A DNA stretch of 64,000 nt. Origin: Clostridiales bacterium (GTDB lineage: Bacteria; Bacillota; Clostridia; Christensenellales; UBA1242). The stretch covers positions 17,021 through 81,020 of the forward strand of contig SVIQ01000004.1 in NCBI GenBank assembly GCA_015069415.1, written 5' to 3'. Numbering within the stretch: the first letter of the stretch is position 1; each line of letters opens with the position of its first letter. The translations under genes and the position numbers were made by a program. Of this stretch, positions 2,846 to 64,000 are shown piece after piece. The notes under the pieces are model-generated. The model saw only the letters and a list, made by a program, of their open reading frames with translations. It was not told where the DNA came from and did not search any database.

Positions 2846-3981
2846 AAAAGTTAGGAGCTGTTTTTCTTCTTGCTTTGATATGTGCTGTTTGTTTTGTACC
2901 TAATTTAAAGACGACTTACGCATATTTAGACACTTCAAGCGGAAAAGCAATGTGCGTAATCGAAAAAGATAGTGGGCGAATTTTGTTTAGTAAAAATGAA
3001 AAAACTAAACTTCCTATGGCGTCTACAACAAAAGTTGTTACTGCAATCACTGTTCTTGAAAATTGTGATGACTTAAATGAAATGATAACAGTAGACAATT
3101 CTTGCATTGGAGTAGAAGGAACATCAATTTATTTAAGACGTGGCGAACAAATTAAAGTTATAGATTTACTTTACGGGCTAATGTTAAGAAGCGGTAACGA
3201 TTCGGCTGTGGCACTTGCTTGTCACACAGCTGGAAGCGTAAATGAATTTGCAAAACTTATGAATGCAACAGCTGTAAAAGTGGGAGCTAATTCATCAAAC
3301 TTTGTTAATCCTCACGGATTGCACAATGAAAATCATTACACAACGGCACATGATTTAGCTTTAATTACAGCTCATGCTTTAAATAATCCTACTTTTAAAG
3401 AAATTGTTAGCACGAAAACACATGTAATAGAAGCAACTAATTGTTCAGACAAAAGATACTTAACAAATAAGAATAAACTCTTATCTACCTTAGATGGTTG
3501 CGTTGGTGTGAAAACGGGATTTACCATGAAGGCAGGACGATGTCTAGTAAGCGCTTGTGAAAGAAAAAATATGACAACTGTATGCGTTGTGCTTAATTGC
3601 GGACCTATGTTTGAAGAAAGTAAGGAACTTTTAAATTCCTCTTTTGACACATTTGAAAACATTAAACTAATCGACGCTAACGAAGAAATCTACAATGAAT
3701 ATGTCGAAAATGACACACACGCAAGATTATATTTATACGCTGAAGAAGATTTCTTTTATCCTTTAAAAGAAAGCGAAAAATCAGAAATTAGAAAAGAGTA
3801 CACTGTTAGGTTGGATGATGCTGAAATCGGAGACGAGGTTGGAGAAATTAAAGTATTTTTAAATAATCACTTGATTAAATCTCAAAAATTGTATACAATG
3901 AATAAAATTGATAAACTAATTGACAGTAAAACACTGCAAATTAGCGAAGCACTATGGGAAGAAGGATTAAATGAGAATTAA
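2842..3981 (+). CDS. dacB: D-alanyl-D-alanine carboxypeptidase (peptidase S11, low-MW PBP)
   Basis: Signal peptide present. Motifs SxxK (ASTTKV), SxN (SGND) and KTG (VKTGFT). The symbol is assigned only from scpAB-neighbourhood synteny with Bacillus. Confidence 0.8.
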   Translation: MKKLGAVFLLALICAVCFVPNLKTTYAYLDTSSGKAMCVIEKDSGRILFSKNEKTKLPMASTTKVVTAITVLENCDDLNEMITVDNSCIGVEGTSIYLRRGEQIKVIDLLYGLMLRSGNDSAVALACHTAGSVNEFAKLMNATAVKVGANSSNFVNPHGLHNENHYTTAHDLALITAHALNNPTFKEIVSTKTHVIEATNCSDKRYLTNKNKLLSTLDGCVGVKTGFTMKAGRCLVSACERKNMTTVCVVLNCGPMFEESKELLNSSFDTFENIKLIDANEEIYNEYVENDTHARLYLYAEEDFFYPLKESEKSEIRKEYTVRLDDAEIGDEVGEIKVFLNNHLIKSQKLYTMNKIDKLIDSKTLQISEALWEEGLNEN

Positions 3982-8687: not shown

Positions 8688-9182
8688 ATGAAATTATTAG
8701 AAATAGGAAAAATAGTGCGCGTTCATGGAATAAAGGGCGCCGTGAAAGTGATTTGTTATGTTGATGAAGGCATGACAGAATTTAAACATATTTATTTAAC
8801 AAACAAGAAAATAGATGCTAACATTACAAGCGCAAGACCATTAACTGGAGATGCTTTTGTTGTAACAATTGACGTTTTAAAAGATATCGACACAGCCGAA
8901 AGATTTAAAAATCAATCTATTTACATTGATAGAGATGAGTACGATGAGTTTGAAAACAAGCTTTATATGTCAGATTTAATAGGGAAAGACGTAGTAAACG
9001 AAAAGAACGAAAAGATTGGTGAATTGTTAGACTATGACGATTATGGTGCTTCAATCATTCTTACAATTAAATGTGGAGTAAATTCTTATTCAATTCCTTT
9101 TGTTGAAGAAATAATTGTATTTGATGAAGACGATGATGTCTTCAAGATCAATCAAAAGACATTTGAGGATCTAAGAGTATGA
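8688..9182 (+). CDS. rimM: 16S rRNA processing protein RimM
   Basis: IGKIVRVHGIKGAVKV N-terminus. ATGA-coupled to trmD. Confidence 0.9.
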   Translation: MKLLEIGKIVRVHGIKGAVKVICYVDEGMTEFKHIYLTNKKIDANITSARPLTGDAFVVTIDVLKDIDTAERFKNQSIYIDRDEYDEFENKLYMSDLIGKDVVNEKNEKIGELLDYDDYGASIILTIKCGVNSYSIPFVEEIIVFDEDDDVFKINQKTFEDLRV

Positions 9183-9847
9183 AAATAGACATTTTAACGC
9201 TTTTTCCTGAGATGTTTGCTCCTCTTAAGGAAAGTATCATAAAAAGGGCAGTTGAAGACGGAAAAATTGAAATTAATATAATCAATATTAGAGATTTTGC
9301 TGTTCCTCCACATTTTAAATGCGATGACGAACCTTTTGGTGGCGGAGCTGGTATGGTTATGATGTGCGAACCTCTCTTTAAGGCTATTGAAAGCGTAAAA
9401 AAAGACAACTCTAAAATTTACTATATGTCGCCAAGAGGTAAGGTTTTTAATCAAGAATTGGCAAAAGAATTGTCAACATTTGAACACATTATTTTCATCT
9501 GTGGTCATTATGAAGGTATTGATCAAAGAGTAATTGATTATTTTAACATAGAAGAACTTTCAATTGGTGATTATGTTTTAACAGGTGGCGAACTTCCAGC
9601 AATGGTTGTATCCGACAGCATTATTCGTTTAATTCCTGGAGTAATTAAAGAAGATAGCACAAAAGAAGAAAGCTTTAGTGAAAATTTGCTTGAGTACAAT
9701 CAGTACACAAGACCAGCAGAATTTAGGGGAATAAAAGTTCCTGAAATTTTACTAAGTGGTAATCACAAAAAAATTGAAGAATTTAGAAAAAATGAATCAA
9801 TTACTATAACAAAGAAAAACAGACCGGATTTACTAAAAGGAGAATAG
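9179..9847 (+). CDS. trmD: tRNA (guanine37-N1)-methyltransferase
   Basis: MKIDILTLFPEMF, FGGGAGMVM, GHYEGIDQRV. Confidence 0.95.
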   Translation: MKIDILTLFPEMFAPLKESIIKRAVEDGKIEINIINIRDFAVPPHFKCDDEPFGGGAGMVMMCEPLFKAIESVKKDNSKIYYMSPRGKVFNQELAKELSTFEHIIFICGHYEGIDQRVIDYFNIEELSIGDYVLTGGELPAMVVSDSIIRLIPGVIKEDSTKEESFSENLLEYNQYTRPAEFRGIKVPEILLSGNHKKIEEFRKNESITITKKNRPDLLKGE

Positions 9848-9848
9848 T

Positions 9849-10682
9849 ATGATTAACTGGTTTCCAGGGCACATGACCAAAACACTTAGAATCATGCAAA
9901 GTGACAGTAAACTTTGCGATTGTTTTGTGTACGTTGTAGATGCAAGATGTCCGCTTAGTTGTATTAATCCAGAATTTGTGAAAGTGGTTAAAGATAAGCC
10001 TATTTTGTTTGTTTTAAACAAAGCCGATTTAGTTGAAAAGAAAGATATTGAACGCTTTAAAGCTCATTTTGTTTCTCTTGGACATTCATGTGTTGCTCTA
10101 AATGCAACAATGAGTGGCACTTCTAAAATCATTGTAAACGAAATCAAAAAGATTTTTAAAGACCGCTTAGACAAAAACAAGGAAAGAGGCGTTAATTTCA
10201 TACTTCGAGCAATGGTTTTAGGAATTCCAAATTCAGGCAAGTCTACAATTGTTAACAATTTATGCGGTAAAGGTAGAGCTGTGACAGGAAACAAAGCTGG
10301 CGTAACCAGAACTAAACAATGGGTGAAAGTCGACGGAAACATTGAGTTTATGGACACTCCGGGAGTGTTGTTACCAAATTTTGAAGATGAAAGTCAAGCC
10401 TACAAACTCGCTTTCATAGGTTCAATTAAAGATGAAGTTTTAAATATTATTGACATTGCAAACCATCTAATTTCTGCATTAAATGAAATCGATGAGACAA
10501 TTTTAAAAACTAAATACAATGTAGATTTTAACTCTGAAACACTAGATATTGACATTTTGTCAATGATTGGTAAAAAACGAGGTTGTGTCATAAAAGGTGG
10601 CGAAATCGACACCGAGCGAGCAAGCAAAATTCTTCTCACAGATTTTAGATCTGCTAAACTTGGTAAAATTTGTTTGGAGTAA
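9849..10682 (+). CDS. rbgA: Ribosome biogenesis GTPase A (YlqF)
   Basis: INWFPGHM start. Circularly permuted GTPase motifs (LNKADL, GIPNSGKST, DTPG). Confidence 0.9.
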   Translation: MINWFPGHMTKTLRIMQSDSKLCDCFVYVVDARCPLSCINPEFVKVVKDKPILFVLNKADLVEKKDIERFKAHFVSLGHSCVALNATMSGTSKIIVNEIKKIFKDRLDKNKERGVNFILRAMVLGIPNSGKSTIVNNLCGKGRAVTGNKAGVTRTKQWVKVDGNIEFMDTPGVLLPNFEDESQAYKLAFIGSIKDEVLNIIDIANHLISALNEIDETILKTKYNVDFNSETLDIDILSMIGKKRGCVIKGGEIDTERASKILLTDFRSAKLGKICLE

Positions 10683-10685
10683 AAA

Positions 10686-11336
10686 ATGATAGACACTTTA
10701 AAAATTTTTAATCATGATTTAGAATTACTAAATGACAATATAAAAACAATCGCAGGAATAGATGAAGTAGGACGAGGACCTCTTGCTGGTCCGGTAGTAA
10801 CTGCTTGTGTAGTTATGCCTTATGACAAAATGCTAGAAGGTGTTTTTGACAGTAAAAAAGTAAGTAAGAAAAACAGACTTAGATTGTATGATGAAATTTT
10901 AAGTAAGGCAATGTCAGTTTCAATTTCTGTAAGAAATGAAAAAAGAATTGATGAAATCAACATCTTAAATGCGACTAAAGAATGTATGAAAGAATCGTAC
11001 GAAAAATTAATAGTAAAACCTGATTTATTGCTAGTTGATGCAGTGAAACTAAACATTGCAGAAAACGAAATGGCAATAATTAAAGGAGATGCAACTTCAT
11101 ATGCTATTGCATGTGCTTCGATTGTGGCAAAGGTGTATCGTGACAAAATGATGGAAGATTATGCAAAACTTTATCCAAATTATGATTTTGAAAATAATGT
11201 TGGTTATGGAACTAAAAAACACGTTGAAGCACTCAAAACATATGGAATTACGCCAATTCACAGACTTTCGTTCTTAAGTAAAATCATAGGAGAGGAAGAA
11301 TGCAAAAGATTGTATATGGAAAGAAAAGCGAAATAA
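10686..11336 (+). CDS. rnhB: Ribonuclease HII
   Basis: GIDEVGRGPLAGPVV active-site motif. Confidence 0.9.
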   Translation: MIDTLKIFNHDLELLNDNIKTIAGIDEVGRGPLAGPVVTACVVMPYDKMLEGVFDSKKVSKKNRLRLYDEILSKAMSVSISVRNEKRIDEINILNATKECMKESYEKLIVKPDLLLVDAVKLNIAENEMAIIKGDATSYAIACASIVAKVYRDKMMEDYAKLYPNYDFENNVGYGTKKHVEALKTYGITPIHRLSFLSKIIGEEECKRLYMERKAK

Positions 11337-11647
11337 TTGCTGGCGAATTTCTAAAGAAAAAAGGTTTGAAAATTCTTGAGTACAACTACAAAAACAAAAT
11401 TGGAGAAATTGACATTGTTGCAAAACAAAAAAATTACATAGTTTTTGTAGAAGTAAAGGCTAGAATGAGTAGAGCTTTTGGTGATCCTGCTGAAGCAGTT
11501 GACTTTAGAAAACAAGACAAAATTAGAAAAGTTGCGTCACTTTACTTAATGGAACATAATTTAATTGAATCAAATGTTAGATTTGATGTTGTAACAATTT
11601 TAGGTGATGAAAATCCTGAAATTAATCATATAATAAATGCTTTTTAA
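11300..11647 (+). CDS. yraN: YraN family (UPF0102) endonuclease-like protein
   Basis: GEIDIVAKQKNYIVFVEVKAR and RFDVV motifs. Follows rnhB as in Bacillus. Confidence 0.85.
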   Translation: MQKIVYGKKSEIIAGEFLKKKGLKILEYNYKNKIGEIDIVAKQKNYIVFVEVKARMSRAFGDPAEAVDFRKQDKIRKVASLYLMEHNLIESNVRFDVVTILGDENPEINHIINAF

Positions 11648-11657
11648 GGAGGAAATC

Positions 11658-12131
11658 ATGATTAAGACAGAAACTTTATTTACAGAGAAAATGCAAAAAG
11701 AATTGTCAAAAAAACAATTTAAACTTTGGTTATTTTTATTAATTTTTAGTAGTATTTTTGAATTTTTCACGATTATTTTAAGCTTTATGGGAGAAGATGT
11801 GTGGTCACTTCATTGCTGTAATTTAATTGTTGTTGTATTTAGCATAATTTGTATTCGAACTAATTTTAAAAATAGAAAAAATTGTGTTGAAAATAAAATA
11901 ATAAATAGTTACGAGTTTGACCAGGAGTATTTTTATGTTTCTACCACAAAAAATGGAGACAATCTTGGAAATATGAAAATTTATTACAAAGATATTATAA
12001 AAGTCAAGGAAACAGAAAATTATTTGTTTTTGTACATAAACAGAATAAACGCTTATCCAATCGACAAAGCTACAACATCTAAAGAAGATTTAATTTTAAT
12101 TAAAGGGTTAATAGAAAAGAGTAAAAAATAA
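11658..12131 (+). CDS. YcxB-like membrane protein
   Basis: AGGAGG RBS before ATG 11658. Two TM helices, then IYYKDIIKVKETENYLFLYINRINAYPIDK, typical of the YcxB-like family. Confidence 0.55.
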   Translation: MIKTETLFTEKMQKELSKKQFKLWLFLLIFSSIFEFFTIILSFMGEDVWSLHCCNLIVVVFSIICIRTNFKNRKNCVENKIINSYEFDQEYFYVSTTKNGDNLGNMKIYYKDIIKVKETENYLFLYINRINAYPIDKATTSKEDLILIKGLIEKSKK

Positions 12132-12153
12132 TATAAAAAATTTCAAAAAAGAC

Positions 12154-12182
12154 TTGCATTAATTAAAAATATATGATAGAAT
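12154..12182 (+). promoter_or_regulatory. rplS promoter
   Basis: TTGCAT-17 nt-TAGAAT with an upstream TGn. Followed by a ~55-nt leader (possible L19 autoregulatory leader, not verified). Confidence 0.55.
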
Positions 12183-12241
12183 AACAAAAGTATTGGCGGT
12201 CCGCTACAGTCCAATTGCAAGAACGTCAAGTAGGAGGTAAT

Positions 12242-12586
12242 ATGAATATTATTGACCAAATCGAGAAAGAACAATTACGCAACGACCTCACACCTTTCAA
12301 TATTGGAGACACCGTAAGAGTTATGGTTAAAGTCAAAGAGGGTGACAAAGAACGTATCCAAGCATACGAAGGCGTCGTAATCGCTAGAAAAGGATCTGGC
12401 ATTCGTGAAACTTTCACAGTTAGACGTGTGTCTTTCGGTTGTGGTGTTGAAAGAACATTCCCTGTTCACAGCCCAAGAATCGACAAGATCATCGTTACTA
12501 GAGCTGGTAAAGTTAGACGTGCTAAGATTTACTACATTCGTGATCTTTCAGGTAAAGCGGCAAAAGTTAAAGAAAAGAGAAATTAA
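12242..12586 (+). CDS. rplS: 50S ribosomal protein L19
   Basis: [36 protein letters not shown] before ATG 12242; the track start at 12215 lies in the leader. Confidence 0.95.
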
Positions 12587-12607
12587 TTTTAACGCTAGTT
12601 TTAAATT

Positions 12608-12632
12608 AGATGAGTTTAACTCATCTTTTTTT
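12608..12632 (+). terminator. Intrinsic terminator after rplS
   Basis: AGATGAG-TTTAA-CTCATCT followed by T7. Confidence 0.7.
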
Positions 12633-12668
12633 ATTTTTCATTTCATCAAACAAATGTTCGATAAATAA

Positions 12669-12697
12669 TTGACAAAAAATGGAAATTGTGCTAAACT
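12669..12697 (+). promoter_or_regulatory. comM-dprA-topA promoter
   Basis: TTGACA-17 nt-TGcTAAACT. Confidence 0.55.
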
Positions 12698-12715
12698 CCC
12701 ACAAAAGAGGTAAAT

Positions 12716-14248
12716 ATGTTAGCTAAAATATTATCATTAGGTTTAGATGGAATTAATGGTTATCCTGTTGAAATTGAATTAGATATTAATGCAGGAATTC
12801 CTGGTTATGACGTTGTTGGTCTTGCTGACACTGCAGTTAAAGAGAGTAAAGAAAGAGTAAGAGCTGCAATTAAAAACAGTGCTTTCAATTATCCAATTAA
12901 CAAGATTATTGTAAATCTTGCTCCGGCAGACACTAAAAAAGTCGGAAGTATGTACGATTTGCCAATTGCTTTAGGTATTTTAGTCGCTGAAGGAATTTTA
13001 GACAACAAAAAACTCAAAGATTATGTAGTGCTTGGAGAACTTAGCTTAGATGGTGAAATTAGAAAACTAGACGGTATTTTACCTATGCTAATTTCAGCTA
13101 AACAAATGGGTTACACTAAATTTATCATTCCAAAAGAAAACGCAAGAGAAGCATCTTTTATTGATGGAATTGAAACTTATGCTTTGTCTACACTTAAAGA
13201 AGTAGTAGGTCTTTTTAACGGCACGTTAAAAGTTGAAAAAAATGAAAGCCAATCTTTTGATCTGGTTGTAAAAAATCATAATTTCAAACATGATTTTAAG
13301 TACGTAAAAGGTCAAGTGTCTGCAAAACGTGCAATGGAAATTGCTGCAGCTGGTGGACATAACATTTTACTCATAGGACCTCCTGGAGCTGGAAAAACTA
13401 TGATGGCAAAATGCTTTCCTTCAATTCTTCCCGACTTGTCGTTTGAAGAAAGTTTAGAGGTTACTAAAATTCACAGTGTTGCTGGCGTTCTTGATTCTAA
13501 GACTGGTATTGTTGTAGAGCGTCCATTTAGATCTCCTCATCATACGGCAACATTAATTGCTTTAACTGGTGGTGGATCAAAAGCAAAACCGGGAGAAATT
13601 AGTCTTGCTCACAACGGTGTACTTTTCCTTGATGAAATGCCAGAATATGCAAGAAACACTATTGAAACGCTTCGTCAACCTATGGAAGATGGCTACATAA
13701 CTGTTGCAAGAAATGCCTTGACTGTTCAGTATCCTGCTAACTTCATTCTAGTTGCAAGTATGAATCCATGTCCATGCGGTTATTACGGAAGTTCAACCCA
13801 AGAATGTAAGTGTTCTCCTGGCGCAATTCATAAATATTTAACAAAAATTAGCGGGCCATTAATGGACAGAATTGATTTGCATGTAGAAGTTGACAGCGTT
13901 AACTACGAAGATTTAACTACAGAGAAACTTGAAGAGCCTAGTGAAAATGTAAAAGAAAGGGTTAATAAGGCTAGAGAAGTTCAACTCGCTAGATTTAAAG
14001 GCGAAAAATTTTATTCAAACAGCAAAATGAGTGAGAAACACTTCGTTAAGCATTGTAAACTTGACCCTGAAAGTAGCAAGTTAATTGAAATGGCGTTTAA
14101 GAGATTAAACATTTCAGCAAGAGGTTACAACAGAATTCTTAAAGTTGCTAGAACTATTGCCGATTTAGAGGGTAGTGAAAACATTAAAAAGGAACATGTT
14201 TTGGAAGCAATTCAATATAGAATGCTTGACAAAAAGTACACGGTGTAG
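12716..14248 (+). CDS. comM: YifB/ComM family Mg-chelatase-like AAA+ ATPase
   Basis: Lon-like N-domain. Walker A GPPGAGKT. Cys cluster CPCGYYGSSTQECKC. Confidence 0.9.
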   Translation: MLAKILSLGLDGINGYPVEIELDINAGIPGYDVVGLADTAVKESKERVRAAIKNSAFNYPINKIIVNLAPADTKKVGSMYDLPIALGILVAEGILDNKKLKDYVVLGELSLDGEIRKLDGILPMLISAKQMGYTKFIIPKENAREASFIDGIETYALSTLKEVVGLFNGTLKVEKNESQSFDLVVKNHNFKHDFKYVKGQVSAKRAMEIAAAGGHNILLIGPPGAGKTMMAKCFPSILPDLSFEESLEVTKIHSVAGVLDSKTGIVVERPFRSPHHTATLIALTGGGSKAKPGEISLAHNGVLFLDEMPEYARNTIETLRQPMEDGYITVARNALTVQYPANFILVASMNPCPCGYYGSSTQECKCSPGAIHKYLTKISGPLMDRIDLHVEVDSVNYEDLTTEKLEEPSENVKERVNKAREVQLARFKGEKFYSNSKMSEKHFVKHCKLDPESSKLIEMAFKRLNISARGYNRILKVARTIADLEGSENIKKEHVLEAIQYRMLDKKYTV

Positions 14249-14251
14249 GCT

Positions 14252-15334
14252 ATGACAATTGATGATAAAAATATATTATGGCTAGATTTATTTGAAGGAT
14301 TGTCTTACTCAAAAAAGAGAAAAATTTTAGAAATTGTAGGAAGAGGCGTGGATGTTAGAAGCATTTTTCTTTCCTCTCCTCAAATTAAAGATATATTAAC
14401 CGAACAAGAGTTTAACAAAATGTCACTTTGCCTTTTACCTCAATTTTTGGAACAAAAATTAAAAACGTATGAAGATGCAGGCATTAAGTTAATAACATTT
14501 TTTAACGAAGAATATCCTTATTTATTAAAAGAAATTTCAACACCACCGTTATGTTTATATTGCTTGGGTAACACACAGTTGTTAAATTCTTTTTGCATTG
14601 GAGTTGTTGGAACAAGAAAACCAACCGATTACGGTACTGTAGTTACAAAGCAATTCGTTAAAAAATTGGTAGCAAATGACATTACAATTGTGTCTGGAAT
14701 GGCTGTGGGGATTGATTCAGTTGCACATAAGACAGCTCTTGAAGAAGAAGGAAACACAATTGCTGTTTTGGCTGGAGGATTCAATCATGTTTATCCGGCG
14801 ATTAATCAACCGATGTTTAAGAAACTTCAAGAAAACAATTTGGTAATAAGCGAAAACAATCCAAACACAACTCCACTTCCGTATCTTTTCCCAATTAGAA
14901 ACAGGATTATTGCAGGTTTGTCGCGCGGGGTTTTTGTTCCAGAAGCAGGAAAGAAGAGTGGCTCTATGAGAACAATCGAAGATGCTGTAGAATTTAATCG
15001 TGACATTTTTATTCTTCCCGGCAAAATTAATTCTCCTATGAGCGAAGGGACAAATTTATGTATTAAAAAATATTTAGGTTCAATAGTGTTATGTCCGGAG
15101 GACATTTTAGACAATTTTCAAATTGTTGACAAAGAAAATGAAAAAAATGTAGGTATTCAACTTGACATGGACGCTCAAATTGTATTAGATTATATAAAGA
15201 CTGAAAAGAAAACTTTCCAACAGTTAGCAGATTTAACTCATCTTCCAACTAACAAGCTTAATATAATGCTAATGGAACTCGAAATGAATGGTTTGGTGAT
15301 TAAACTTGCGAACAACAGTTATATAATGGCTTAA
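14252..15334 (+). CDS. dprA: DNA processing protein DprA
   Basis: GVVGTRKPTDYG and SGMAVGIDS Rossmann-like core. Sits in the comM-dprA-topA arrangement. Confidence 0.9.
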   Translation: MTIDDKNILWLDLFEGLSYSKKRKILEIVGRGVDVRSIFLSSPQIKDILTEQEFNKMSLCLLPQFLEQKLKTYEDAGIKLITFFNEEYPYLLKEISTPPLCLYCLGNTQLLNSFCIGVVGTRKPTDYGTVVTKQFVKKLVANDITIVSGMAVGIDSVAHKTALEEEGNTIAVLAGGFNHVYPAINQPMFKKLQENNLVISENNPNTTPLPYLFPIRNRIIAGLSRGVFVPEAGKKSGSMRTIEDAVEFNRDIFILPGKINSPMSEGTNLCIKKYLGSIVLCPEDILDNFQIVDKENEKNVGIQLDMDAQIVLDYIKTEKKTFQQLADLTHLPTNKLNIMLMELEMNGLVIKLANNSYIMA

Positions 15335-15377
15335 AAGGAGCGTTTGCTTCTTTTTAGAGTCTTTAAAAGGAGATACT

Positions 15378-17456
15378 ATGAAGTTAGTATTTATAGAAGG
15401 ACCAGGTAAGAAAGACACAATTGCAAAGTACTTAGGAAGTGATTATTTAATCTGTCCAACGAAAGGTCATGTTAGGGATTTACCGGCAAAATCGTTCGCG
15501 ATAGATTTTAACAATAATTTTGAACCAACTTATGAAATCATACCAGAGAAAAAAGCTTTGGTGGCGGATTTCAAGAAAAAAGCAAAAGAAGCTGAAGCGA
15601 TTTACCTTGCAACCGACCCGGATAGGGAAGGTGAAGCAATGGCTTGGCATATTGCAACTATTTTAGGTTTAGACGAAAATGCTGTCGTTAGAACGGCTTT
15701 TAATGAAATTAGTAAGAAAGCTGTAAATGAAAGCATAGCTAATCCAAAACCGCTGAATTACAATTTAATTAACGCTCAGCAAGGTCGACGCGTTCTTGAC
15801 CGTATCGTAGGTTATGAATTAAGTCCATTATTATCTAAGAAAATTAGAAGTAAACTTAGCGCTGGACGTGTTCAATCTGTAACCTTAAAATTAGTTGTAG
15901 ACAGAGAACGAGCAATTCAAAATTTTGTACCAGTTGAGTACTGGAACATCACTGCAAATTTAAGTAAAAATGGAGAAAAGTTTAAGTCTGATTTAACACA
16001 TTATCAAGGCAAAAAGATTGAAATTCCAAACAAAGACAGTGCGGATAAAGTTTTAGTTGATTTACAAGATGCCGAGTTTAAAGTTGAATCTGTTAAAAGA
16101 CAAATAACTTATTCAAAACCACTTGCTCCGTACATTACGAGCACGCTTCAACAAGATGCGGTTAGTAAACTTAAAATGACACTTAATTCTTACACAAAAT
16201 GTGCTCAATCATTGTATGAAGGAGTTATGGTTGAAGGCGAAGGTAAAACAGCTCTTGTAACATATATCCGTACAGATTCGACACGTGTTAGTACAGATGC
16301 TCAATTCATGGCGAGAGATTATATCTTAGAAAATTTTGGGAAAGAATATCATCCTGGTAAATTTAATGAATTTGCATCAAAAGAAAGCGCTCAAGATGCC
16401 CACGAAGCAATTAGACCTATTAATTTAAAGTACACACCAGAGTACTTAAAGGGCAAAATTGATGAGCAGTACTTAAAACTTTACACTTTGGTTTTCAAAC
16501 GTTTTGTTGCAAGTCAAATGTCTTATGCTCAATATGACAGTTTAACAGTTGACATAACTGCGAATGATTACAAGTTCCGTTCAGGTGGTAAAGCTCTGAT
16601 TTTTGATGGATATACAAGAGTTTATAAGGTGCAAGAAGACGAAAAGAATGGAATTAACATTCCAGCTTTAAATGAAGGTGAAATTGTCAAAAAAGAAGAA
16701 ATTCTCAGCGAACAAAAATTTACAAAACCTCCAGTTAGATTTACAGAAGCATCACTCGTTAAAGAAATGGAAGTTCAAGGTATTGGACGTCCGTCAACTT
16801 ATGCGGCAACTGTTATGACACTTATGAATAGGGAGTATGTTGTTCAAGAAAAGAAAGCTCTTGTTCCAACAGAACTTGGAATGATGGTCACAGATTACTT
16901 AGATGATTACTTTAAAGACATCATGGATTTGAAGTTCACTGCAGAAATGGAAAAGAAACTTGACGATGTAGAACTCGGAAAATACAAGTGGCAAGACATT
17001 GTTGCGTCTTTCTACACTGGATTTAAAGAAAATATGCAATATGCAAGCACTCAAATGGGAGTAAGCATGCCTAAAGCACCACCTGAGCCAAGCGATGTAA
17101 AATGCGACAAGTGTGGCTCTATGATGGTTTATAGAGAAGGTAAATTCGGAAAATTCTTAGCATGTAGCAACTATCCAACATGTAAGAACACAAAGAATTT
17201 AAACGAACCAGAAAACAAAGTTGAAGACAAAGGATTATGTCCAAAATGTGGCGGAGTTGTTAGTGCGAAGTACAGCAAACGCGGAAAACTATTCTTTGGT
17301 TGTGACAACTATCCAAAATGTGATTACATTTCTTGGGACTTGCCTTTAAAAGAAAAATGTCCAAAGTGCGGTGAAGGATTGTTTAAGAAATTTAACGCTA
17401 AAGGTGTGGCGACAGTAGTTTGCAACGCTAAAGGATGTACATATGTCCAAAATTAA
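15378..17456 (+). CDS. topA: DNA topoisomerase I
   Basis: TOPRIM (LATDPDREGE). Active-site region YIRTDS. Three C-terminal CxxC zinc ribbons. Confidence 0.95.
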   Translation: MKLVFIEGPGKKDTIAKYLGSDYLICPTKGHVRDLPAKSFAIDFNNNFEPTYEIIPEKKALVADFKKKAKEAEAIYLATDPDREGEAMAWHIATILGLDENAVVRTAFNEISKKAVNESIANPKPLNYNLINAQQGRRVLDRIVGYELSPLLSKKIRSKLSAGRVQSVTLKLVVDRERAIQNFVPVEYWNITANLSKNGEKFKSDLTHYQGKKIEIPNKDSADKVLVDLQDAEFKVESVKRQITYSKPLAPYITSTLQQDAVSKLKMTLNSYTKCAQSLYEGVMVEGEGKTALVTYIRTDSTRVSTDAQFMARDYILENFGKEYHPGKFNEFASKESAQDAHEAIRPINLKYTPEYLKGKIDEQYLKLYTLVFKRFVASQMSYAQYDSLTVDITANDYKFRSGGKALIFDGYTRVYKVQEDEKNGINIPALNEGEIVKKEEILSEQKFTKPPVRFTEASLVKEMEVQGIGRPSTYAATVMTLMNREYVVQEKKALVPTELGMMVTDYLDDYFKDIMDLKFTAEMEKKLDDVELGKYKWQDIVASFYTGFKENMQYASTQMGVSMPKAPPEPSDVKCDKCGSMMVYREGKFGKFLACSNYPTCKNTKNLNEPENKVEDKGLCPKCGGVVSAKYSKRGKLFFGCDNYPKCDYISWDLPLKEKCPKCGEGLFKKFNAKGVATVVCNAKGCTYVQN

Positions 17457-41105: not shown

Positions 41106-41492
41106 ATGAGTGAAATTTTAAAAATTGTAGCGGTGGCGTTGGTCACAGTTTTTGCACATATGTTAATTAAGCAGACAAAACCAGAATTAGCCCTTTTAAT
41201 TTCAATTGCTGGCAGTGTAATGATTATAATAATGGTTGTCGGAACGTTTAAAAATGTTTTTGGCTCATTTTATCAAATATTCAATAAAACCGGTGTAAAG
41301 ATGGAACTTTTAAGTCCATTATTTAAAATTTTAGCCATCGGTTACATTGCGGAATTTGGAGCAAATATATGCGTTGATGCAGGGGCGAGTAGTGTCGCGG
41401 ACAAGATTTTATTTTCGGCAAAACTAATTATTCTTGTTGTTGCGTTGCCTATTATTACATCAGTAATTGATATGGTGGTGTCGCTATTATGA
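41106..41492 (+). CDS. spoIIIAD: Stage III sporulation protein AD
   Basis: 128-aa polytopic paralogue of AC (ILKIVAVALVTVF..., IGYIAEFGANICVDAG). Confidence 0.8.
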   Translation: MSEILKIVAVALVTVFAHMLIKQTKPELALLISIAGSVMIIIMVVGTFKNVFGSFYQIFNKTGVKMELLSPLFKILAIGYIAEFGANICVDAGASSVADKILFSAKLIILVVALPIITSVIDMVVSLL

Positions 41493-42700
41493 TGAAATTA
41501 AAGAAAAGAAATGCAAGTCTTTGCTTAATGTTAGTTTTAATGCTTCTCCTCATGATAGTGATTGCTCCAGCTGAAACATATTGTTTAGAAACAAACACAA
41601 CGAGTCAAATTGAAGAAGAATTAAATGAAAGCATAGTCAATGAACTTGACGCAATCGATTTTAAAGATTTAAGTAAAGTAATTGAAGAATTTAATGAGAA
41701 AAATACAAACTTATTTTCATTAGGCAATTTAAAAGAAAAGGTTTACGAAGTAATTAGCGGAGAAAATGCAGTTAATTATTCATCTTTTTTTGCTTCACTT
41801 TTTTCAAATGTTATTGATAAGGTAGTCCGTTATCTTCCAATGTTGTCGCTCATTATTGCAATAGGAGTAATTGGAAATCTTTTAAATGGAGTAAAAAGTA
41901 AATTTAATGAAAAATCTACTAGTAACCTAATTCATTTGGTTTGCTTTATGGTTGTTGCAATTTTGGTAATTGCTATGGTTTCATCGCTAGCAATAGACAC
42001 AGGGCAGTCAATTGACAGTATGGTTAGCCAAATGAATGTGTTGTTTCCAATTCTGTTAACTTTAATGGTTGGAATTGGAGCGCATGCCAGCGTAGGAGTG
42101 TTTCAACCGGTTGTAGCAATTATTTCTACATATGTTGCAGATATTTTTAATTTCTTTATAATGCCGTTGTTTATGTTTAGTTTTGTCTTTGGTATCATAT
42201 CAAATATATCAGATAACGTTAAAGTAGATAAGTTTAGTTCGTTTGTTTCAGGATTGTTTAAATGGACAGTAGGAATTGTGTTTACTATATTCTTTGCAGT
42301 CTTTTCATTGCAGGGCATAACAGCGGGGAAATTCGATAGTTTAAGCATTCGTACAACTAAATACACAATTAAGAGCTATGTTCCAGTAATGGGAGGATAC
42401 TTGTCAGACGGAATGGATTTAATTTTGGCTAGCTCTGTATTAATAAAAAACTCAATAGGTCTAGTTGGAATTTTACTAATCATTACTACGATTTTGTCAC
42501 CAATCTTAGATATAGTAATATTCAGTTTAATGATGAAATTAATCTCAGCTGTTTTACAACCTATGGGCAACAGCAAACTTTCAAATTTCTTATCTAGCAC
42601 TTCAAAATCAGTTACTATGCTATCAACATGTTTAATTGCTGTAGGATTTATGTATTTAATATCAATCGGTCTAGTCATGACGACAAGTGTGGTGGTGTGA
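41489..42700 (+). CDS. spoIIIAE: Stage III sporulation protein AE
   Basis: Signal peptide plus about 7 TM segments. About 400 aa. Fifth position in the cluster. Confidence 0.8.
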   Translation: MMKLKKRNASLCLMLVLMLLLMIVIAPAETYCLETNTTSQIEEELNESIVNELDAIDFKDLSKVIEEFNEKNTNLFSLGNLKEKVYEVISGENAVNYSSFFASLFSNVIDKVVRYLPMLSLIIAIGVIGNLLNGVKSKFNEKSTSNLIHLVCFMVVAILVIAMVSSLAIDTGQSIDSMVSQMNVLFPILLTLMVGIGAHASVGVFQPVVAIISTYVADIFNFFIMPLFMFSFVFGIISNISDNVKVDKFSSFVSGLFKWTVGIVFTIFFAVFSLQGITAGKFDSLSIRTTKYTIKSYVPVMGGYLSDGMDLILASSVLIKNSIGLVGILLIITTILSPILDIVIFSLMMKLISAVLQPMGNSKLSNFLSSTSKSVTMLSTCLIAVGFMYLISIGLVMTTSVVV

Positions 42701-61041: not shown

Positions 61042-62263
61042 TGAAATTATGCAATTTTTAAACGATTGTGAAAAAGAATTAAAAGAAAAATTTGATGAAA
61101 TTGATGCTATTGAATTTGAAAATCAATTAAAAGTTTTAAATGCTTTTAATGAAAACCGAATTCAAGCTCATCATTTCATCGGAAGTAGTGGGTATGGTCA
61201 TAATGATATCGGAAAAGAAAAAATATCTAGTGTTTTTGCGTCTATTTACCACACTGAAGACGCTTTTGTAAGTCCTTTAATCAGTTGCGGTACTGAAGCA
61301 ATCAGCCAAACATTGTTTGGTCTTCTTAGACCTAATGACACAATGCTTTGCATTTCTGGAACACCTTATGACACATTAATGAACATAATTTATGGGGTAG
61401 AGGGAAAGAATGTTGGATCTTTAAAAGATTATAACATTAATTACGCTGAAGTTGATTTAAAAGACGGAGATTTTGATTTAGAAAGCATTTCTAAAGCAAT
61501 TAATGAATTGAATCCAAAGATGATTTACATTCAACGTTCACGCGGTTATTCTTTAAGAAATGCGTTAAGTATTGCGCAAATAGAAAGAGCTATCAAAGAG
61601 GTTAGAAAATATACTAACGCTTATGTTGTGGTTGACAATTGTTACGGCGAATTTACTGAAACAAAAGAGCCTACTGACGTTGGCGCAGATTTAGTCGTTG
61701 GATCCCTCCTAAAGAATATGGGCGGAGGAATTGCTCCAACTGGTGGTTATATGGCAGGAAAGAGCGAAATGATTGAATTGATATCATACAAATTCACTAG
61801 TCCAGCTTTGGGAGTAGACACGGGTTCATATGAGCCTGGATACAAGTCTTTCTTTGAAGGAGTCTTTGTTTCTCCTCACGTTGTTGCAAATGCGAAGAAA
61901 TTAGTGGCTTTAACAAGTCTTGCAATGAATAAACTAGGATATGAAACAGTACCATCTAAAGATCAAACTATTTCAGACATTGTTTGTTGCATAAACTTTA
62001 AGGATAAAGACAAGCTAGTTAAATTTACACGTGCAATTCAATTTACAAGCGCAATAGACAGTGATTCGGTCCTTGAAGCGGGGGAGATGGATGGATATGC
62101 CGATTTAATCATTATGGCAAGTGGAAGCTTTAATCAAGGTAGTAGCATCGAACTTAGTTGTGATGGACCTATGCGTGAGCCATACGCAGGTTTCTTACAA
62201 GGTTGTTTAACCTATCAACACGGCAAAATCGGCCTCATGAACGCAATTAAAGCAATTAAATAA
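61025..62263 (+). CDS. ynbB: Methionine gamma-lyase-like PLP enzyme (YnbB / aluminium-resistance family)
   Basis: GSSGYGHNDIGKEKI and GSLLKNMGGGIAPTGGY (PLP Lys) family motifs. Confidence 0.8.
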   Translation: MITINNEIMQFLNDCEKELKEKFDEIDAIEFENQLKVLNAFNENRIQAHHFIGSSGYGHNDIGKEKISSVFASIYHTEDAFVSPLISCGTEAISQTLFGLLRPNDTMLCISGTPYDTLMNIIYGVEGKNVGSLKDYNINYAEVDLKDGDFDLESISKAINELNPKMIYIQRSRGYSLRNALSIAQIERAIKEVRKYTNAYVVVDNCYGEFTETKEPTDVGADLVVGSLLKNMGGGIAPTGGYMAGKSEMIELISYKFTSPALGVDTGSYEPGYKSFFEGVFVSPHVVANAKKLVALTSLAMNKLGYETVPSKDQTISDIVCCINFKDKDKLVKFTRAIQFTSAIDSDSVLEAGEMDGYADLIIMASGSFNQGSSIELSCDGPMREPYAGFLQGCLTYQHGKIGLMNAIKAIK

Positions 62264-62271
62264 AAATAAGA

Positions 62272-62300
62272 AGAAACACTTTAAACTAGTTTCTTTTTTT
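62272..62300 (+). terminator. Terminator after ynbB
   Basis: AGAAAC-11 nt-GTTTCT followed by T7. Confidence 0.5.
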
Positions 62301-62493
62301 AATTTTAATTCGCCAATTAAATCCAAATTTAATTAATAGTAAACAAATATATAGAGTAGGATAGGAATATTATAGTAAAAAGCATGTTAGAAAGGTAAAA
62401 TTGTGTGTGTGGACAAAAATGGAGGAGTAAAAAAAGATTTACATATAACTTTGCGTAAAACAATACTAATATACAATTTAATATAAAAAAATA

Positions 62494-62520
62494 GGAGTAG
62501 GGAAGACCTACTCTTTTTTA
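62494..62520. terminator. Hairpin terminating the repressor-peptide transcript (T runs on both sides)
   Basis: GGAGTAGG-GAAGA-CCTACTCT flanked by A7 upstream and T6 downstream. Confidence 0.6.
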
Positions 62521-62603
62521 TTTTGATCTTCTAATATTTTTAAAATTTTCTTCATCCTTTTATTTATTTTGATTACGTATAGTAATACAAAAAATGAAAA
62601 CAT
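62508..62603 (-). CDS. 31-aa peptide co-transcribed downstream of the repressor (not in ORF track)
   Basis: AAGGAGG RBS 4 nt before the ATG, 10 nt after the repressor stop. MFSFFVLLYVIKINKRMKKILKILEDQNKKE. Its stop codon lies inside a terminator stem. Confidence 0.45.
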   Translation of the reverse strand: MFSFFVLLYVIKINKRMKKILKILEDQNKKE

Positions 62604-62613
62604 AGTGCCTCCT

Positions 62614-62886
62614 TTATTTTATCTTAACATTAATATTACTGCTGTTATTGAAACTATTGTTGATTTGTACTTTAGCACGTTCACTAGGTGTATCTATTTC
62701 TAATAGTTCGTCAGCAGTGCAGTTAAAAAGAATGCAAAGTTTTCTAATAATGTCAATGCTTGGTTCTCTTACTCCTTGTTCATAGTGAGCGTAGCATTGT
62801 CTAGTCACACCAATTCTAAGTGCAACTTCTTCTTGTTTTAATTTACTTTGATTTCTGTAATATTTAAATTGATTTTTTAAACTCAT
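62614..62886 (-). CDS. XRE/cI-type helix-turn-helix repressor
   Basis: LKQEEVALRIGVTRQCYAHYEQGVREPSIDIIRKLCILFNCTADELL HTH_3 pattern. Divergent from a run of small + strand ORFs. Confidence 0.85.
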   Translation of the reverse strand: MSLKNQFKYYRNQSKLKQEEVALRIGVTRQCYAHYEQGVREPSIDIIRKLCILFNCTADELLEIDTPSERAKVQINNSFNNSSNINVKIK

Positions 62887-62892
62887 AAAAAA

Positions 62893-62901
62893 ATTATATC
62901 A
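62893..62901 (-). promoter_or_regulatory. Leftward extended -10 element for the repressor gene (leaderless-type geometry)
   Basis: On the minus strand: TGATATAAT, then TTTTTT, then ATG of the repressor. No SD. Confidence 0.4.
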
Positions 62902-62911
62902 AAATGTGTCA
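62895..62911. promoter_or_regulatory. Operator half-site O1 overlapping the leftward -10
   Basis: AATGTGTCAT is shared with O2 and O3. The left half (TATATCA) is degenerate. Confidence 0.35.
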
Positions 62912-62918
62912 TTTTTGC

Positions 62919-62948
62919 TTGACAATGATACATAATGTGTCGTAATAT
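62919..62948 (+). promoter_or_regulatory. Rightward (lytic-type) promoter of the integrated element
   Basis: TTGACA-18 nt-TAATAT. The spacer is filled by operator-like palindrome O2. Confidence 0.5.
62926..62942. promoter_or_regulatory. Operator-like imperfect palindrome O2
   Basis: TGATACA-TAA-TGTGTCG. Part of a 22-nt direct repeat (62922-62943) matching 62955-62976 at 19/22 positions. Confidence 0.55.
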
Positions 62949-62959
62949 TATTTCAACAA

Positions 62960-62976
62960 TGATACAGAACGTGTCA
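62960..62976. promoter_or_regulatory. Operator-like imperfect palindrome O3
   Basis: TGATACA-GAA-CGTGTCA, between the -10 box and the first rightward RBS. Confidence 0.55.
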
Positions 62977-62992
62977 TTTAAAAGGAGTGTAT

Positions 62993-63226
62993 ATGTTAAG
63001 TCATTACGAATTTATTGCTAAACCGAAAAAAAACAAACGTTTAGCACGTGGATTGAAAGCAATTGATGATATTATCGATTATTTCAGTTTTCACAACATT
63101 GACACTGACAATGCAATTTATGTTTTAGGTAGTATACTAAAAGTTTTAATGGATTGTAAACGTTGTGGTGTCTTATTGCTCAACAGAGAACAAAGGAGGA
63201 AGAATGGAAATCGTAGATCTAGTTAA
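62993..63226 (+). CDS. Hypothetical early protein of the integrated element
   Basis: AAAGGAG RBS before ATG 62993. First gene of the rightward transcription unit. Basic C-terminus. Confidence 0.5.
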   Translation: MLSHYEFIAKPKKNKRLARGLKAIDDIIDYFSFHNIDTDNAIYVLGSILKVLMDCKRCGVLLLNREQRRKNGNRRSS

Positions 63227-63425
63227 AGAGTGTTTACCTTACGTGTTTTCGATTCTTGCAACTATCGTTGCGTTTATCAAAGGTAAACCAAAGAAAACAA
63301 AGTCAGTCGAAGAAATCAAAGCAACCGCTGACAAAAAGTATCATGCTTACGTCGAAAAGCAATTAAAGAAGAACAAAATCGAAAATGTTCTAATTGAAAC
63401 AACAGATGAAGAAGTAGAGGTGTAG
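63204..63425 (+). CDS. Hypothetical small membrane-anchored protein
   Basis: AAGGAGG RBS before ATG 63204. TM segment LPYVFSILATIVAFI, then a charged tail. Confidence 0.5.
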   Translation: MEIVDLVKECLPYVFSILATIVAFIKGKPKKTKSVEEIKATADKKYHAYVEKQLKKNKIENVLIETTDEEVEV

Positions 63426-63426
63426 A

Positions 63427-63621
63427 GTGAAAGTTTCAGATGAAGAAATTGAAATTTTTAGTAAAGAGAATTCTTTGCGATTGTCGAATTTTAAAGATTT
63501 GCTTGTTTCTTTAGATAAGAAAACTTTGGTAAATATTGTTTTGTCTTATTTTATTGAATCTCAAATTATTAAGCAAAAGGAGGAACAAGATGGCAAAGAG
63601 AAGAAAAGCGATGAAAAATAG
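63427..63621 (+). CDS. Hypothetical protein
   Basis: GTG start 1 nt after the previous stop (GAGGTG upstream). 64 aa with an acidic/lysine-rich end. Confidence 0.45.
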   Translation: MKVSDEEIEIFSKENSLRLSNFKDLLVSLDKKTLVNIVLSYFIESQIIKQKEEQDGKEKKSDEK

Positions 63622-63712
63622 CATAGATAGTCGTATCTTTAAACGTACAGCTGTTAAAGGCAAGAAAATCAATGTAGATCCAGCGCCAATGCGTGGTGGA
63701 ATTAGGTTGTAG
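63590..63712 (+). CDS. 40-aa highly basic protein resembling Microviridae (gokushovirus) ORF8/J-type DNA-binding protein (not in ORF track)
   Basis: AAAGGAGG RBS 6 nt before the ATG. MAKRRKAMKNSIDSRIFKRTAVKGKKINVDPAPMRGGIRL has 13 K/R and 2 D. The SxRxFxxTA...MRGGIRL pattern is recalled from gokushovirus small basic proteins. Confidence 0.5.
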   Translation: MAKRRKAMKNSIDSRIFKRTAVKGKKINVDPAPMRGGIRL

Positions 63713-63713
63713 A

Positions 63714-63881
63714 ATGAAAGAATCTCAAAAGATACAACTAAAACTTAAAATAATACAACATTTTAAAGGTCTTCACTTTACCTTAGTTGAAATGTATGAA
63801 ATATTCGACGAATTAAAAAGTGACTTAAGTAAAATTGCCGTAGAGCAAGAACTAGAAAGATTAAAAATTAGGAGAAAATAA
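63714..63881 (+). CDS. Hypothetical helical protein
   Basis: ATG 63714 lies 2 nt after the previous stop. 55 aa, predicted helical. Confidence 0.45.
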   Translation: MKESQKIQLKLKIIQHFKGLHFTLVEMYEIFDELKSDLSKIAVEQELERLKIRRK

Positions 63882-63883
63882 TT

Positions 63884-64000
63884 ATGAAAATTTATGCAAT
63901 TAAAGACGTTAAAGCTGGATTTGGAAAACCATTTTTAGGACATGATAACGAATCAATTGTTAGAGAGTTTGCGTTGTCTTGTAATTCAAAACCAGGATTT
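63884..64000 (+). CDS. Partial ORF (3' end beyond window) resembling Microviridae VP5-type non-structural protein N-terminus
   Basis: AGGAGAAAA RBS. MKIYAIKDVKAGFGKPFLGHDNESIVREFALSCN matches the recalled pattern MKxFxIxDxKxxxxxxPFxxxxxxxAxRxFxxxxN. Confidence 0.4.
   Translation, partial: MKIYAIKDVKAGFGKPFLGHDNESIVREFALSCNSKPGF

Follow-up and report, generated by a model that had tools for sequence, protein, structure and literature searches.

A gokushovirus-like prophage with a candidate cI-type repressor at a palindromic, probably Xer-type site of a Clostridia chromosome

Gokushovirus prophages of Enterobacteria (the EC6098 group) integrate at dif, and integration is lost in a host carrying a xerC deletion (PMC7062461). 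For the microvirus proviruses of Bacteroidetes (BMV1-7, Alpavirinae), which have dif-like flanks, the use of the host dimer-resolution machinery has been inferred (PMC3091885). Complete microviral prophages were described in 2022 in Erysipelatoclostridium and Mammaliicoccus sciuri, reported as the first in Gram-positive bacteria (PMC9239249), and a 2021 preprint had assigned gut 'Gokushoviridae' to Clostridiales hosts. Here we analyze a 64,000-nt stretch of a Clostridiales bacterium genome (the window: positions 17,021 to 81,020 of contig SVIQ01000004.1, assembly GCA_015069415.1), whose final 1.55 kb (62445-64000) is best explained as the left part of an intact 5,830-nt gokushovirus-like (Microviridae) prophage, integrated in the chromosome of a low-GC Clostridia bacterium through a host Xer-family recombinase and kept there by a repressor of the XRE family. 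Taken as a whole (prophage, host-mediated integration and repressor-held lysogeny), we regard this explanation as likely.

Like the EC6098 group, the window phage is gokushovirus-type, lacks an integrase and has the host's conserved recombination site on one side and a more divergent, phage-derived copy on the other. However, the EC6098 group uses the canonical 28-bp XerC/XerD dif, whereas the Gram-positive host described here offers a perfect 13/14-6-13/14 palindrome that is unrelated to dif and has a single Xer-like gene linked to it; moreover, the main text of PMC7062461 is silent on a repressor, whereas the window phage has an antisense XRE gene with operator-like palindromes. BMV1-7 share with it the integrase-less provirus, the dif-like flanks and an inferred use of host machinery, but belong to another microvirus lineage and another host phylum, and the main text of PMC3091885 contains no regulator or repressor; GC skew could not be analyzed for them, whereas the lineage studied here offers both the skew position and empty and occupied alleles. 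The 2022 prophages are also complete microviruses in Firmicutes, and no integration site, recombinase or lysogeny control is described in the accessible part of that article (PMC9239249). The earlier note on this DNA, made from its letters alone, had considered a repressor-controlled microvirus lysogen in a spore-forming Firmicute unusual; given these precedents, the host phylum alone is no longer surprising. A close relative is bajarodmic virus 781 (PQ007018.1, here L010), a free circular genome from kangaroo-rat faeces, with the same gene order, attachment-site (attP) position and arm (CTTTGCGCAAAA), control-region layout and type of XRE promoter. It is 74% identical in nucleotides across the repressor and early region, 61% in the XRE protein and 59% in the major capsid protein (MCP), and differs in its length (5,160 versus 5,830 nt), in its spacer (CGCTTC) and operators, and in lacking a 31-aa open reading frame (ORF).

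The window ends inside the element, and two contigs continue it: L001, a public contig found through exact-protein look-ups, which is identical to the window and extends 1.5 kb to the right, and L018, an 8,240-nt IMG/VR contig, which overlaps 63622-64000 with 0 mismatches and adds 7.9 kb (window coordinate = L018 coordinate + 63621). The attachment sites and principal genes, from left to right, are as follows.

62445-62480, plus strand: attL, ACTTTGCGTAAAA-CAATAC-TAATATACAATTT, composed of a host-type arm, a 6-nt spacer (62461-66) and a phage-derived degenerate arm (62467-80)
62614-62886, minus strand: putative XRE/cI-type repressor, 90 aa, HTH_3 domain only (Pfam HTH_3, 55.3 bits; transcriptional regulator/repressor families phrog_8 and phrog_3)
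63590-63712, plus strand: 40-aa K/R-rich protein ending MRGGIRL, VP8/J analogue (phrog_10695, E=4e-9, full length)
63884-64000 in the window, plus strand (L018 263-691): ORF5/VP5-type non-structural protein, 142 aa; the N-terminus is in the window and the continuation comes from L001 and L018
L018 693-1214: VP3 internal scaffold (Pfam Chlamy_scaf, 111 bits)
L018 1207-2862: major capsid protein VP1 (Pfam Phage_F, 571 bits over 10-547)
L018 2871-3215: pilot protein VP2, 114 aa (phrog_8693, E=1e-11)
L018 3552-4634: HUH Rep (VP4), 360 aa (phrog_942, E=2.5e-112; REP_ORF2-G2P, 70.9 bits)
L018 after 4634: non-coding DNA, about 540 nt
Right junction in L018: attR, the perfect 13-6-13 palindrome ACTTTGCGTAAAA-CAATAC-TTTTACGCAAAGT

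All core genes are full length with intact motifs, HFHILLF and YVARYV being readable in Rep. The capsid is 45.5% identical over 98% of its length to that of Chlamydia phage 3 and 46.5% to that of Marine gokushovirus, and no deposited microvirus exceeds 60% (bajarodmic virus 1054). An F-type single jelly-roll VP1 with at least 30% identity, which defines the gokushovirus-like phages ('Family 3' sensu PMC9239249) on the capsid side, is therefore present, as are the HUH rolling-circle initiator and the accompanying set of VP3, VP2, ORF5/VP5 and small basic DNA-binding protein, whereas Pfam and PHROG scans of the 5.83 kb matched no ORF to D- or G-type proteins (external scaffold and spike). The distance between attachment sites is within the Microviridae range, the element being known here from its integrated copy only. 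Pfam Phage_ORF5 is recognized already in the 39-residue fragment of ORF5 that lies in the window (31.2 bits, cut-off 27) and reaches 55.4 bits with the full protein, which also matches phrog_1670. The 40-aa protein has tblastn matches in 644 Microviridae records, many of them labelled 'DNA binding protein'; its gene sits just upstream of ORF5 in L010-L013 and is also present in L014.

These results bear out most of what the earlier note had proposed: a Microviridae prophage without integrase, in which the 40-aa protein was compared to ORF8/J and the terminal ORF to VP5. The rightward extension it had suggested yielded capsid, scaffold, pilot protein and Rep, and neither Phage_integrase nor resolvase matches were found among the ORFs between attL and attR, so that the element encodes no recombinase of its own over its whole length. 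Genes for terminase, portal, tail, primase or phage-inducible chromosomal island (PICI) functions, which the same note had named as evidence to the contrary along with a lack of Microviridae profile matches for the two small proteins, do not occur between attL and attR; with VP3, VP1, VP2 and VP4 downstream, gene content rules out both a tailed prophage and a PICI. Its left boundary, placed at 62508, has to be moved to the attachment core at 62445-62480, since 62508-62603 is a phage-internal minus-strand ORF and terminator. Microviruses usually carry all their genes on one strand. The XRE gene and the 31-aa ORF depart from this arrangement, as does the XRE homolog of PQ007018.1, which is an atypical trait but not a ground for exclusion from the family.

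The junctions of the element are precise. A 23-nt exact direct repeat, ATAACTTTGCGTAAAACAATACT, which the earlier note had proposed to look for at the far end, occurs at 62445-62467 and at composite positions 68275-68297 (L018 4654-4676), 5,830 nt apart. Read this way, attL has phage DNA as its right arm whereas attR has host DNA there, so the host attB is the perfect palindrome; the phage attP is composed of the good arm, an identical spacer and the degenerate arm, and lies between the stop codon of Rep and the repressor gene's 3' end (predicted sequences: attP, GTATACATAACTTTGCGTAAAACAATACTAATATACAATTT; attB, TTACATATAACTTTGCGTAAAACAATACTTTTACGCAAAGTGAAATAGG). The free relative L010 carries an attP of the predicted type, CTTTGCGCAAAA-CGCTTC-ACAATG… with a degenerate arm, in the gap that separates its Rep stop codon from the 3' terminus of the XRE homolog. 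Integrative mobile elements exploiting Xer (IMEX) include the phages CTX, VGJ and TLC as well as GGI; one good arm, a central region and a degenerate second arm are also carried by those of the TLC/GGI type (PMC5357621), and the pairing of a host site with a copy degenerate in its second arm is seen in the window with L018, in L098 when compared to the empty L099, and in L011 (see below). In the three prophages with resolved attachment sites (window, L098 and L011) the phage-side spacer is the same as the host spacer, as is required for strand exchange by a tyrosine recombinase. There is no second inverted site able to form a CTX-like single-stranded DNA hairpin, which makes the double-stranded replicative form the probable substrate.

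Metagenome-assembled genomes (MAGs) often include microvirus contigs that were binned there by mistake, as illustrated by L014 and L015 (see below) and warned of in PMC9239249, and a chimeric assembly could in principle have joined host and microvirus. Nevertheless, the left junction is covered by at least five independent contigs, from different samples and assemblers, and has the same sequence in separately made assemblies (from JGI, and from ENA with contig names that begin with k141_) of at least 10 samples, the right junction comes from a separate contig (L018), and both follow an exact attachment-site logic that matches empty alleles in relatives, which makes a chimera of negligible probability.

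Those alleles come from relatives lacking the insertion after ynbB, which the earlier note had proposed for comparison. The closest named YnbB homologs (80% identity) belong to Candidatus Onthoplasma (Clostridia, order Christensenellales), which provides the nearest named relatives of the host, and four contigs of Ca. Onthoplasma faecigallinarum, encoding one identical YnbB protein, could be compared. Three of them are empty and show ynbB, 720 nt, serS, a recombinase gene and lexA, with a perfect 14-6-14 palindrome, ATCTTTGCGTAAAA-CACTTC-TTTTACGCAAAGAT. The fourth (L098) is occupied by a different microvirus of 5,294 nt, inserted exactly in the palindrome, which encodes ORF5, scaffold, capsid and Rep together with a ribbon-helix-helix (RHH) gene instead of XRE; its attL, ATCTTTGCGTAAAA-CACTTC-TTTTGCGAGTAAAT, has a degenerate arm, and its attR, ATCTTTGCGCAAAA-CACTTC-TTTTACGCAAAGAT, is regenerated. 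The flanks of the window prophage align with those of the empty sites. Perfect, unoccupied palindromes were also found at this ynbB|serS locus in four further relatives (further empty sites being …GCGTAAAA-GAATGG-TTTTACGC…, …GCGCAAAA-CTCTTC-TTTTGCGC… and …TTCGCAAAA-CACTTC-TTTTGCGAA…), in which both arms co-vary and the spacer is species-specific. Perfect palindromes, co-varying arms, species-specific spacers and the phage/host spacer match all indicate that the host site is probably functional. The same architecture with other arms is found in a Lachnospiraceae MAG (L011), where a related prophage lies between ATCTCTTCGCAAAA-CCTGTC-TTTTGGAATGTAAA and the perfect ATCTCTTCGCAAAA-CCTGTC-TTTTGCGAAGAGAT.

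The candidate enzyme is encoded on the right side of the prophage, where L018 and the empty contig L099 show the following features.

L018 5171-5404, minus strand: 77-aa coiled-coil ORF
L018 5503-6885, minus strand: serS
L018 7194-8240, plus strand: tyrosine recombinase, 348 aa, with a Phage_integrase catalytic domain and readable RKHRH/Y residues
Composite 68737-68748 (L018 5116-5127) and 70754-70765 (L018 7133-7144); L099 11777-11788 and 13609-13620: extra single copies of the attB arm

The recombinase gene is 2.5 kb from the attachment site, separated from it by serS. Its product is 72.5% identical to the Onthoplasma ortholog, and its position between serS and lexA, shared by empty and occupied strains, identifies it as a host gene. 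The best NCBIfam model is XerS (NF003462, 174 bits, full length: residues 12-339 against 5-353 of 360), followed by XerA (159), XerC (158) and XerD (151). Both the window host and each of the six relatives examined have further copies of the arm (ATCTTTGCGTAAAA or a one-base variant) at two places, one inverted and about 20-60 nt upstream of the recombinase start, the other some 430-840 nt beyond the palindrome on its right side, suggesting that they may serve for autoregulation of the recombinase or as accessory binding sites; in the 64-kb window the arm 12-mer is seen a single time, about as often as chance predicts, versus five times within 8.3 kb around the locus. To the left of the element, GC skew amounts to +0.15 across 62 kb, to the right it is -0.13 across 3.5 kb, and a sign change at the site is also seen in L099, L105, L108, L011 and L102 (at least six genomes with the window host). 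Homologous recombinase genes are also the immediate neighbours of two more distant microvirus prophages, those of L012 and L102. L012 comes from a goat-caecum Clostridia MAG with a GC content of about 55%; a related microvirus (8949-15513) stands there directly after ynbB and directly before the recombinase gene, which has 46% GC and a product 31% identical to that of the window host; a 50-aa membrane ORF fills the preceding gap, and the perfect palindrome CTATACTAAA-TTAATA-TTTAGTATAC is present at the left junction only. L102 (6626-13100; GCA_965643355.1, which has the spore genes cotJ and yunB) contains a decaying microvirus prophage, with the capsid gene split into three ORFs, and a near-perfect palindrome, ATTGAACAAAA-TTTTTA-TTTTGCTCAAT, about 60 nt from the start of a minus-strand recombinase gene (34% identical); the palindrome's right arm recurs at the opposite end of the prophage.

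The skew position, the linkage to the recombinase gene and the half-site at its promoter make host Xer-mediated integration of the IMEX type the most likely route. The host Xer-family recombinase would recombine the phage attP with the palindrome between ynbB and serS, yielding a hybrid attL and regenerating the perfect palindrome as attR. That this recombinase acts on the palindrome is, judging from these arrangements, likely; that the palindrome is also the dimer-resolution site (dif) of the chromosome is a weaker but still moderately probable proposition. The nearest described systems are XerS/difSL of streptococci and lactococci and XerH/difH of epsilon-proteobacteria, where a recombinase of about 350 aa is encoded, as here, near a nearly symmetric terminus site, a linkage that is the hallmark of these single-recombinase systems (PMC5357621). 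However, difSL has 31 bp with an 11-bp centre and adjoins its gene, whereas the window site has, by symmetry, a 6-nt spacer and a perfect dyad, and only a half-site is found at the gene promoter, about 50 nt upstream. The dif-like site suggested in the earlier note thus survives as an Xer-type palindromic site, but not as a canonical XerCD dif, being linked to a single Xer-like gene. A dif/Xer system is also reported to have been found through integrated elements in Legionellales (PMC9765430).

Several observations weigh against this explanation. The recombinase scores below the curated XerS cut-off (174 versus 267), so no Xer subtype can be assigned to it; the skew switch in the window host depends on only about 3.5 kb to the right of the prophage; no flanking repeat was found around the L012 prophage; and canonical dif is unlike the site, the best matches in Hamming scans with the sites of B. 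subtilis, E. coli and difSL having 8-10 mismatches in 28. A separate XerCD/dif pair could also exist elsewhere in the host genome, the coverage here being of local sequence. Accordingly, the palindrome might be the dedicated attachment site of a host-resident, domesticated or island-derived tyrosine recombinase unrelated to Xer/dif, borrowed by the microvirus. The dissimilarity to canonical dif and a recombinase score below every curated Xer cut-off would fit this alternative, as would the report that most Firmicutes use XerC/XerD with a conserved dif (PMC3025954, PMC8136486) and a weak dif-like motif after the L099 recombinase gene. The latter (L099 14725-14752, ACACCATATAATGTGTATTATGTGCCAT) immediately follows the stop codon of the recombinase; its core (ATAA-TGTGTA-TTAT) resembles dif, but the motif is unconvincing, the XerD-arm positions being wrong; a Cheo-type LexA box (CGAACAAATGTTTG) is found near it, upstream of lexA. 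Nonetheless, the skew changes sign at the palindrome in at least six genomes, recombinase and site are kept across species beside serS and lexA whether or not a prophage is present, the dyad symmetry is maintained by co-varying arms, and linkage of gene and site at the terminus is what characterizes XerS/difSL and XerH/difH, so we consider a non-dif attachment site unlikely and retain integration by a host Xer-family enzyme.

To the same balance belong two points regarding mobility. No excised circular copy of the window phage was found, the 23-nt core being found in IMG/VR only in L018 and its exact sequence not at all in JGI metagenome contigs, a collection in which samples with this organism are evidently missing, and no empty attB was seen in the exact host species, every contig carrying the prophage. 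Full occupancy and the lack of a circular junction in the two collections searched could mean that the element is a defective, fixed remnant, unable to excise or to form virions, and L102, with its capsid gene in three pieces, demonstrates that such prophages do decay. The window element, on the contrary, has full-length core genes with intact motifs and two intact attachment sites, the site is polymorphic in one sister species (three empty contigs and one occupied), and its 74%-identical relative is a complete circular genome from a faecal virome. A defective remnant is, then, improbable, and we continue to treat the element as an intact prophage.

A minus-strand cI/XRE repressor beside a divergent promoter region had been read from the sequence in the earlier note, and both the Pfam HTH_3 match and a promoter with repeated 15-20-nt motifs were found there. 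The elements of this control region are the following.

62887-62992: divergent control region, 106 nt, between the XRE gene and the rightward operon
62919-62948, plus strand: promoter TTGACA (62919-24)-18-TAATAT (62943-48), heading the small-ORF/structural operon
62894-62902, minus strand: XRE extended -10 promoter, TGATATAAT, 7 nt (seven T residues) from the repressor ATG, with no ribosome-binding site (RBS)
62896-62910: O3, operator-like imperfect palindrome, ATATCAAAATGTGTC
62927-62941: O1, operator-like imperfect palindrome, GATACATAATGTGTC
62961-62975: O2, operator-like imperfect palindrome, GATACAGAACGTGTC

O1-O3 are 15 nt long and spread across both promoters, and two of them form part of a 20-nt direct repeat with a spacing of 34 nt; the region has, at the level of sequence, the make-up of a cI/Cro-type immunity module, with a divergent HTH_3 repressor and several putative operators over the promoters. 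The 90-aa protein would hold lysogeny by binding the three palindromes that overlap the early/structural operon promoter, and would be made antisense to the remaining phage genes (apart from the 31-aa ORF) from a leaderless-type extended -10 promoter, its transcript being predicted to be leaderless-like. In L010 the layout and the TGnTATAAT-7-ATG arrangement both recur, with different operators (ATAGCAnTTTGCTAT); a conserved layout with different operators and XRE proteins 61% identical is the pattern expected of heteroimmune repressor/operator pairs. Its XRE homolog is encoded by an unannotated minus-strand ORF, and the next-best matches of the XRE protein are repressors of temperate tailed phages of Firmicutes. 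Among 3,516 capsid-matching records of the phage collection, PQ007018.1 alone has a homolog; cI-like repressors are rare in Microviridae. In that record the XRE homolog (3550-3813, minus strand) and the 40-aa and 55-aa ORFs are all unannotated; repressor-bearing microviruses may be under-recognized in databases. Two 'Bacteriophage sp.' records with XRE matches, MT839040 and MT839134, are not microviruses.

The XRE protein could have another role: paired with the 31-aa hydrophobic ORF in a two-gene cassette, it could be the antitoxin-like or exclusion partner, or it could act as a general regulator. It has only 90 aa, its Pfam matches are to HTH families only, with no S24 peptidase (self-cleavage) domain, the small hydrophobic ORF lies directly downstream, homologs are lacking in almost all of the approximately 3,500 microvirus records, and enterobacterial gokushovirus lysogens need no known repressor (the word does not appear in the main text of PMC7062461). 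Against this speak the classic divergent layout with three operator-like palindromes over both promoters, its conservation with different operators in L010, the temperate Firmicute phages among which the nearest non-microvirus homologs are found, and the absence of the 31-aa ORF from L010. A role other than lysogeny repressor thus appears quite unlikely, although the lack of a RecA-cleavable domain for induction also counts against the explanation preferred here. In L098 (16428-16601) and L011 (13277-13414), a small plus-strand RHH gene (Arc/CopG-type) before attR replaces the XRE gene after attL; the DNA flanking attP seems to be a slot for interchangeable regulators.

In the literature that we found, three features of this locus are new: a palindromic, non-canonical target with a single Xer-like gene, alleles that define the four attachment sites, and an antisense XRE/operator module. 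A joint reading can be put forward, tentatively and with slightly more doubt than belief. First, Christensenellales-like and some other Clostridia would have a previously undescribed single-recombinase Xer system, with a perfect 14-6-14 dif and extra half-sites, one of them in the recombinase promoter, for which microviruses would be natural IMEX. Second, a gokushovirus-like sub-lineage would have acquired a lambda-style switch from tailed Firmicute phages, with an antisense leaderless XRE repressor and tripartite operators; if true, this would be the first microvirus with a recognizable immunity region, on a 5.8-kb genome. To our knowledge, gut gokushoviruses are among the most abundant phages, and a cultured host or a mechanism of lysogeny is known for hardly any of them. 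The locus offers a testable system, with defined attP, attB, attL and attR, natural empty and occupied alleles and a candidate host recombinase, together with a minimal repressor-operator module on a genome small enough to synthesize. It further suggests that a lineage of uncultured Clostridia has a non-canonical single-recombinase dif-like system, and matching attP arm and spacer to host sites could predict the hosts of related metagenomic microviruses. The model of Xer-exploiting microviruses would be extended from Enterobacteria and Bacteroidetes to Gram-positive hosts, with a regulatory layer, while nothing is overturned and no new category of element is created.

The remaining features of the left end are listed here; before the prophage, the last genes of the window are mutS, mutL, miaA and ynbB, all on the plus strand, and the ynbB stop is at 62263.

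62264-62444: host DNA from the ynbB stop to the attachment site, with the ynbB terminator hairpin near 62270-62300
62493-62515: bidirectional intrinsic terminator at the left end of the phage (2 terminator-like sites versus 0.1 expected from shuffles)
62508-62603, minus strand: 31-aa hydrophobic ORF, MFSFFVLLYVIKINKRMKKILKILEDQNKKE, following the repressor gene; predicted as a gene in JGI contigs
62993-63226, plus strand: 77-aa ORF, first of the rightward operon; L010 has an ORF of equal size in the same place
63204-63425, plus strand: 73-aa ORF with an N-terminal hydrophobic segment
63427-63621, plus strand: 64-aa ORF, GTG start
63714-63881, plus strand: 55-aa ORF, 69% identical to the corresponding ORF of bajarodmic virus 781

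The host DNA aligns with the left flank of the empty Ca. Onthoplasma sites, with conserved TGTGGA...TTTACAT blocks, and is identical in the independent contigs L016 and L017. The terminator would end the repressor transcript and, in the circular form, would also sit after Rep; a similar hairpin follows attP in L010. The 31-aa ORF, a putative gene, has no PHROG match. The 77-, 73-, 64- and 55-aa ORFs have no significant Pfam or PHROG match, and in the first, despite its Cro-like position, no helix-turn-helix was detected; the gene order of the Onthoplasma microvirus begins with a small membrane ORF that resembles the 73-aa ORF (L098 11417-11698). The six packed plus-strand ORFs proposed from the sequence are all present, but strong RBSs (AGGAG/GGAGG-type) precede only five of them, that of the 55-aa ORF being weak.

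Across window positions 63210-63805, contig L007 (ENA ERZ27248351) is only 95% identical, with six gaps, whereas the remaining contigs are 99.8-100% identical, which suggests that a diverged phage variant circulates in that sample series. A scan of GTDB representatives yielded MCP relatives at 43-62% identity, three of them integrated in Clostridia MAGs and two on short contigs. The latter, L014 and L015 (5.1 and 3.8 kb), are binned in a 'Methanobacteriota archaeon' MAG and have no host flanks; they probably reflect errors of binning and not microviruses of archaea.

To the right of the prophage, about 400-430 nt of non-coding DNA separate attB from the next half-site (L018 4690-5115, composite 68311-68736; L099 11382-11776), with blocks conserved across species (TGTGGAAATCA, TCCAC, TTCGACAAG and TCCACAT); TGTGGA-type motifs also occur in the left flank (62405-62420). 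Rfam detected no RNA family in the junction regions. Upstream of a Firmicute aminoacyl-tRNA synthetase gene a T-box leader could be expected, and none was found upstream of serS (L018 6886-7193; L099 13255-13682) at the Rfam gathering threshold. Finally, window positions 41489-42697 encode a SpoIIIAE-like protein (TIGR02829, 231 bits); the spore-forming host that had been supposed is made plausible by this gene, although the match falls just under the 247-bit cut-off, and its presence indicates that the host lineage carries sporulation genes.

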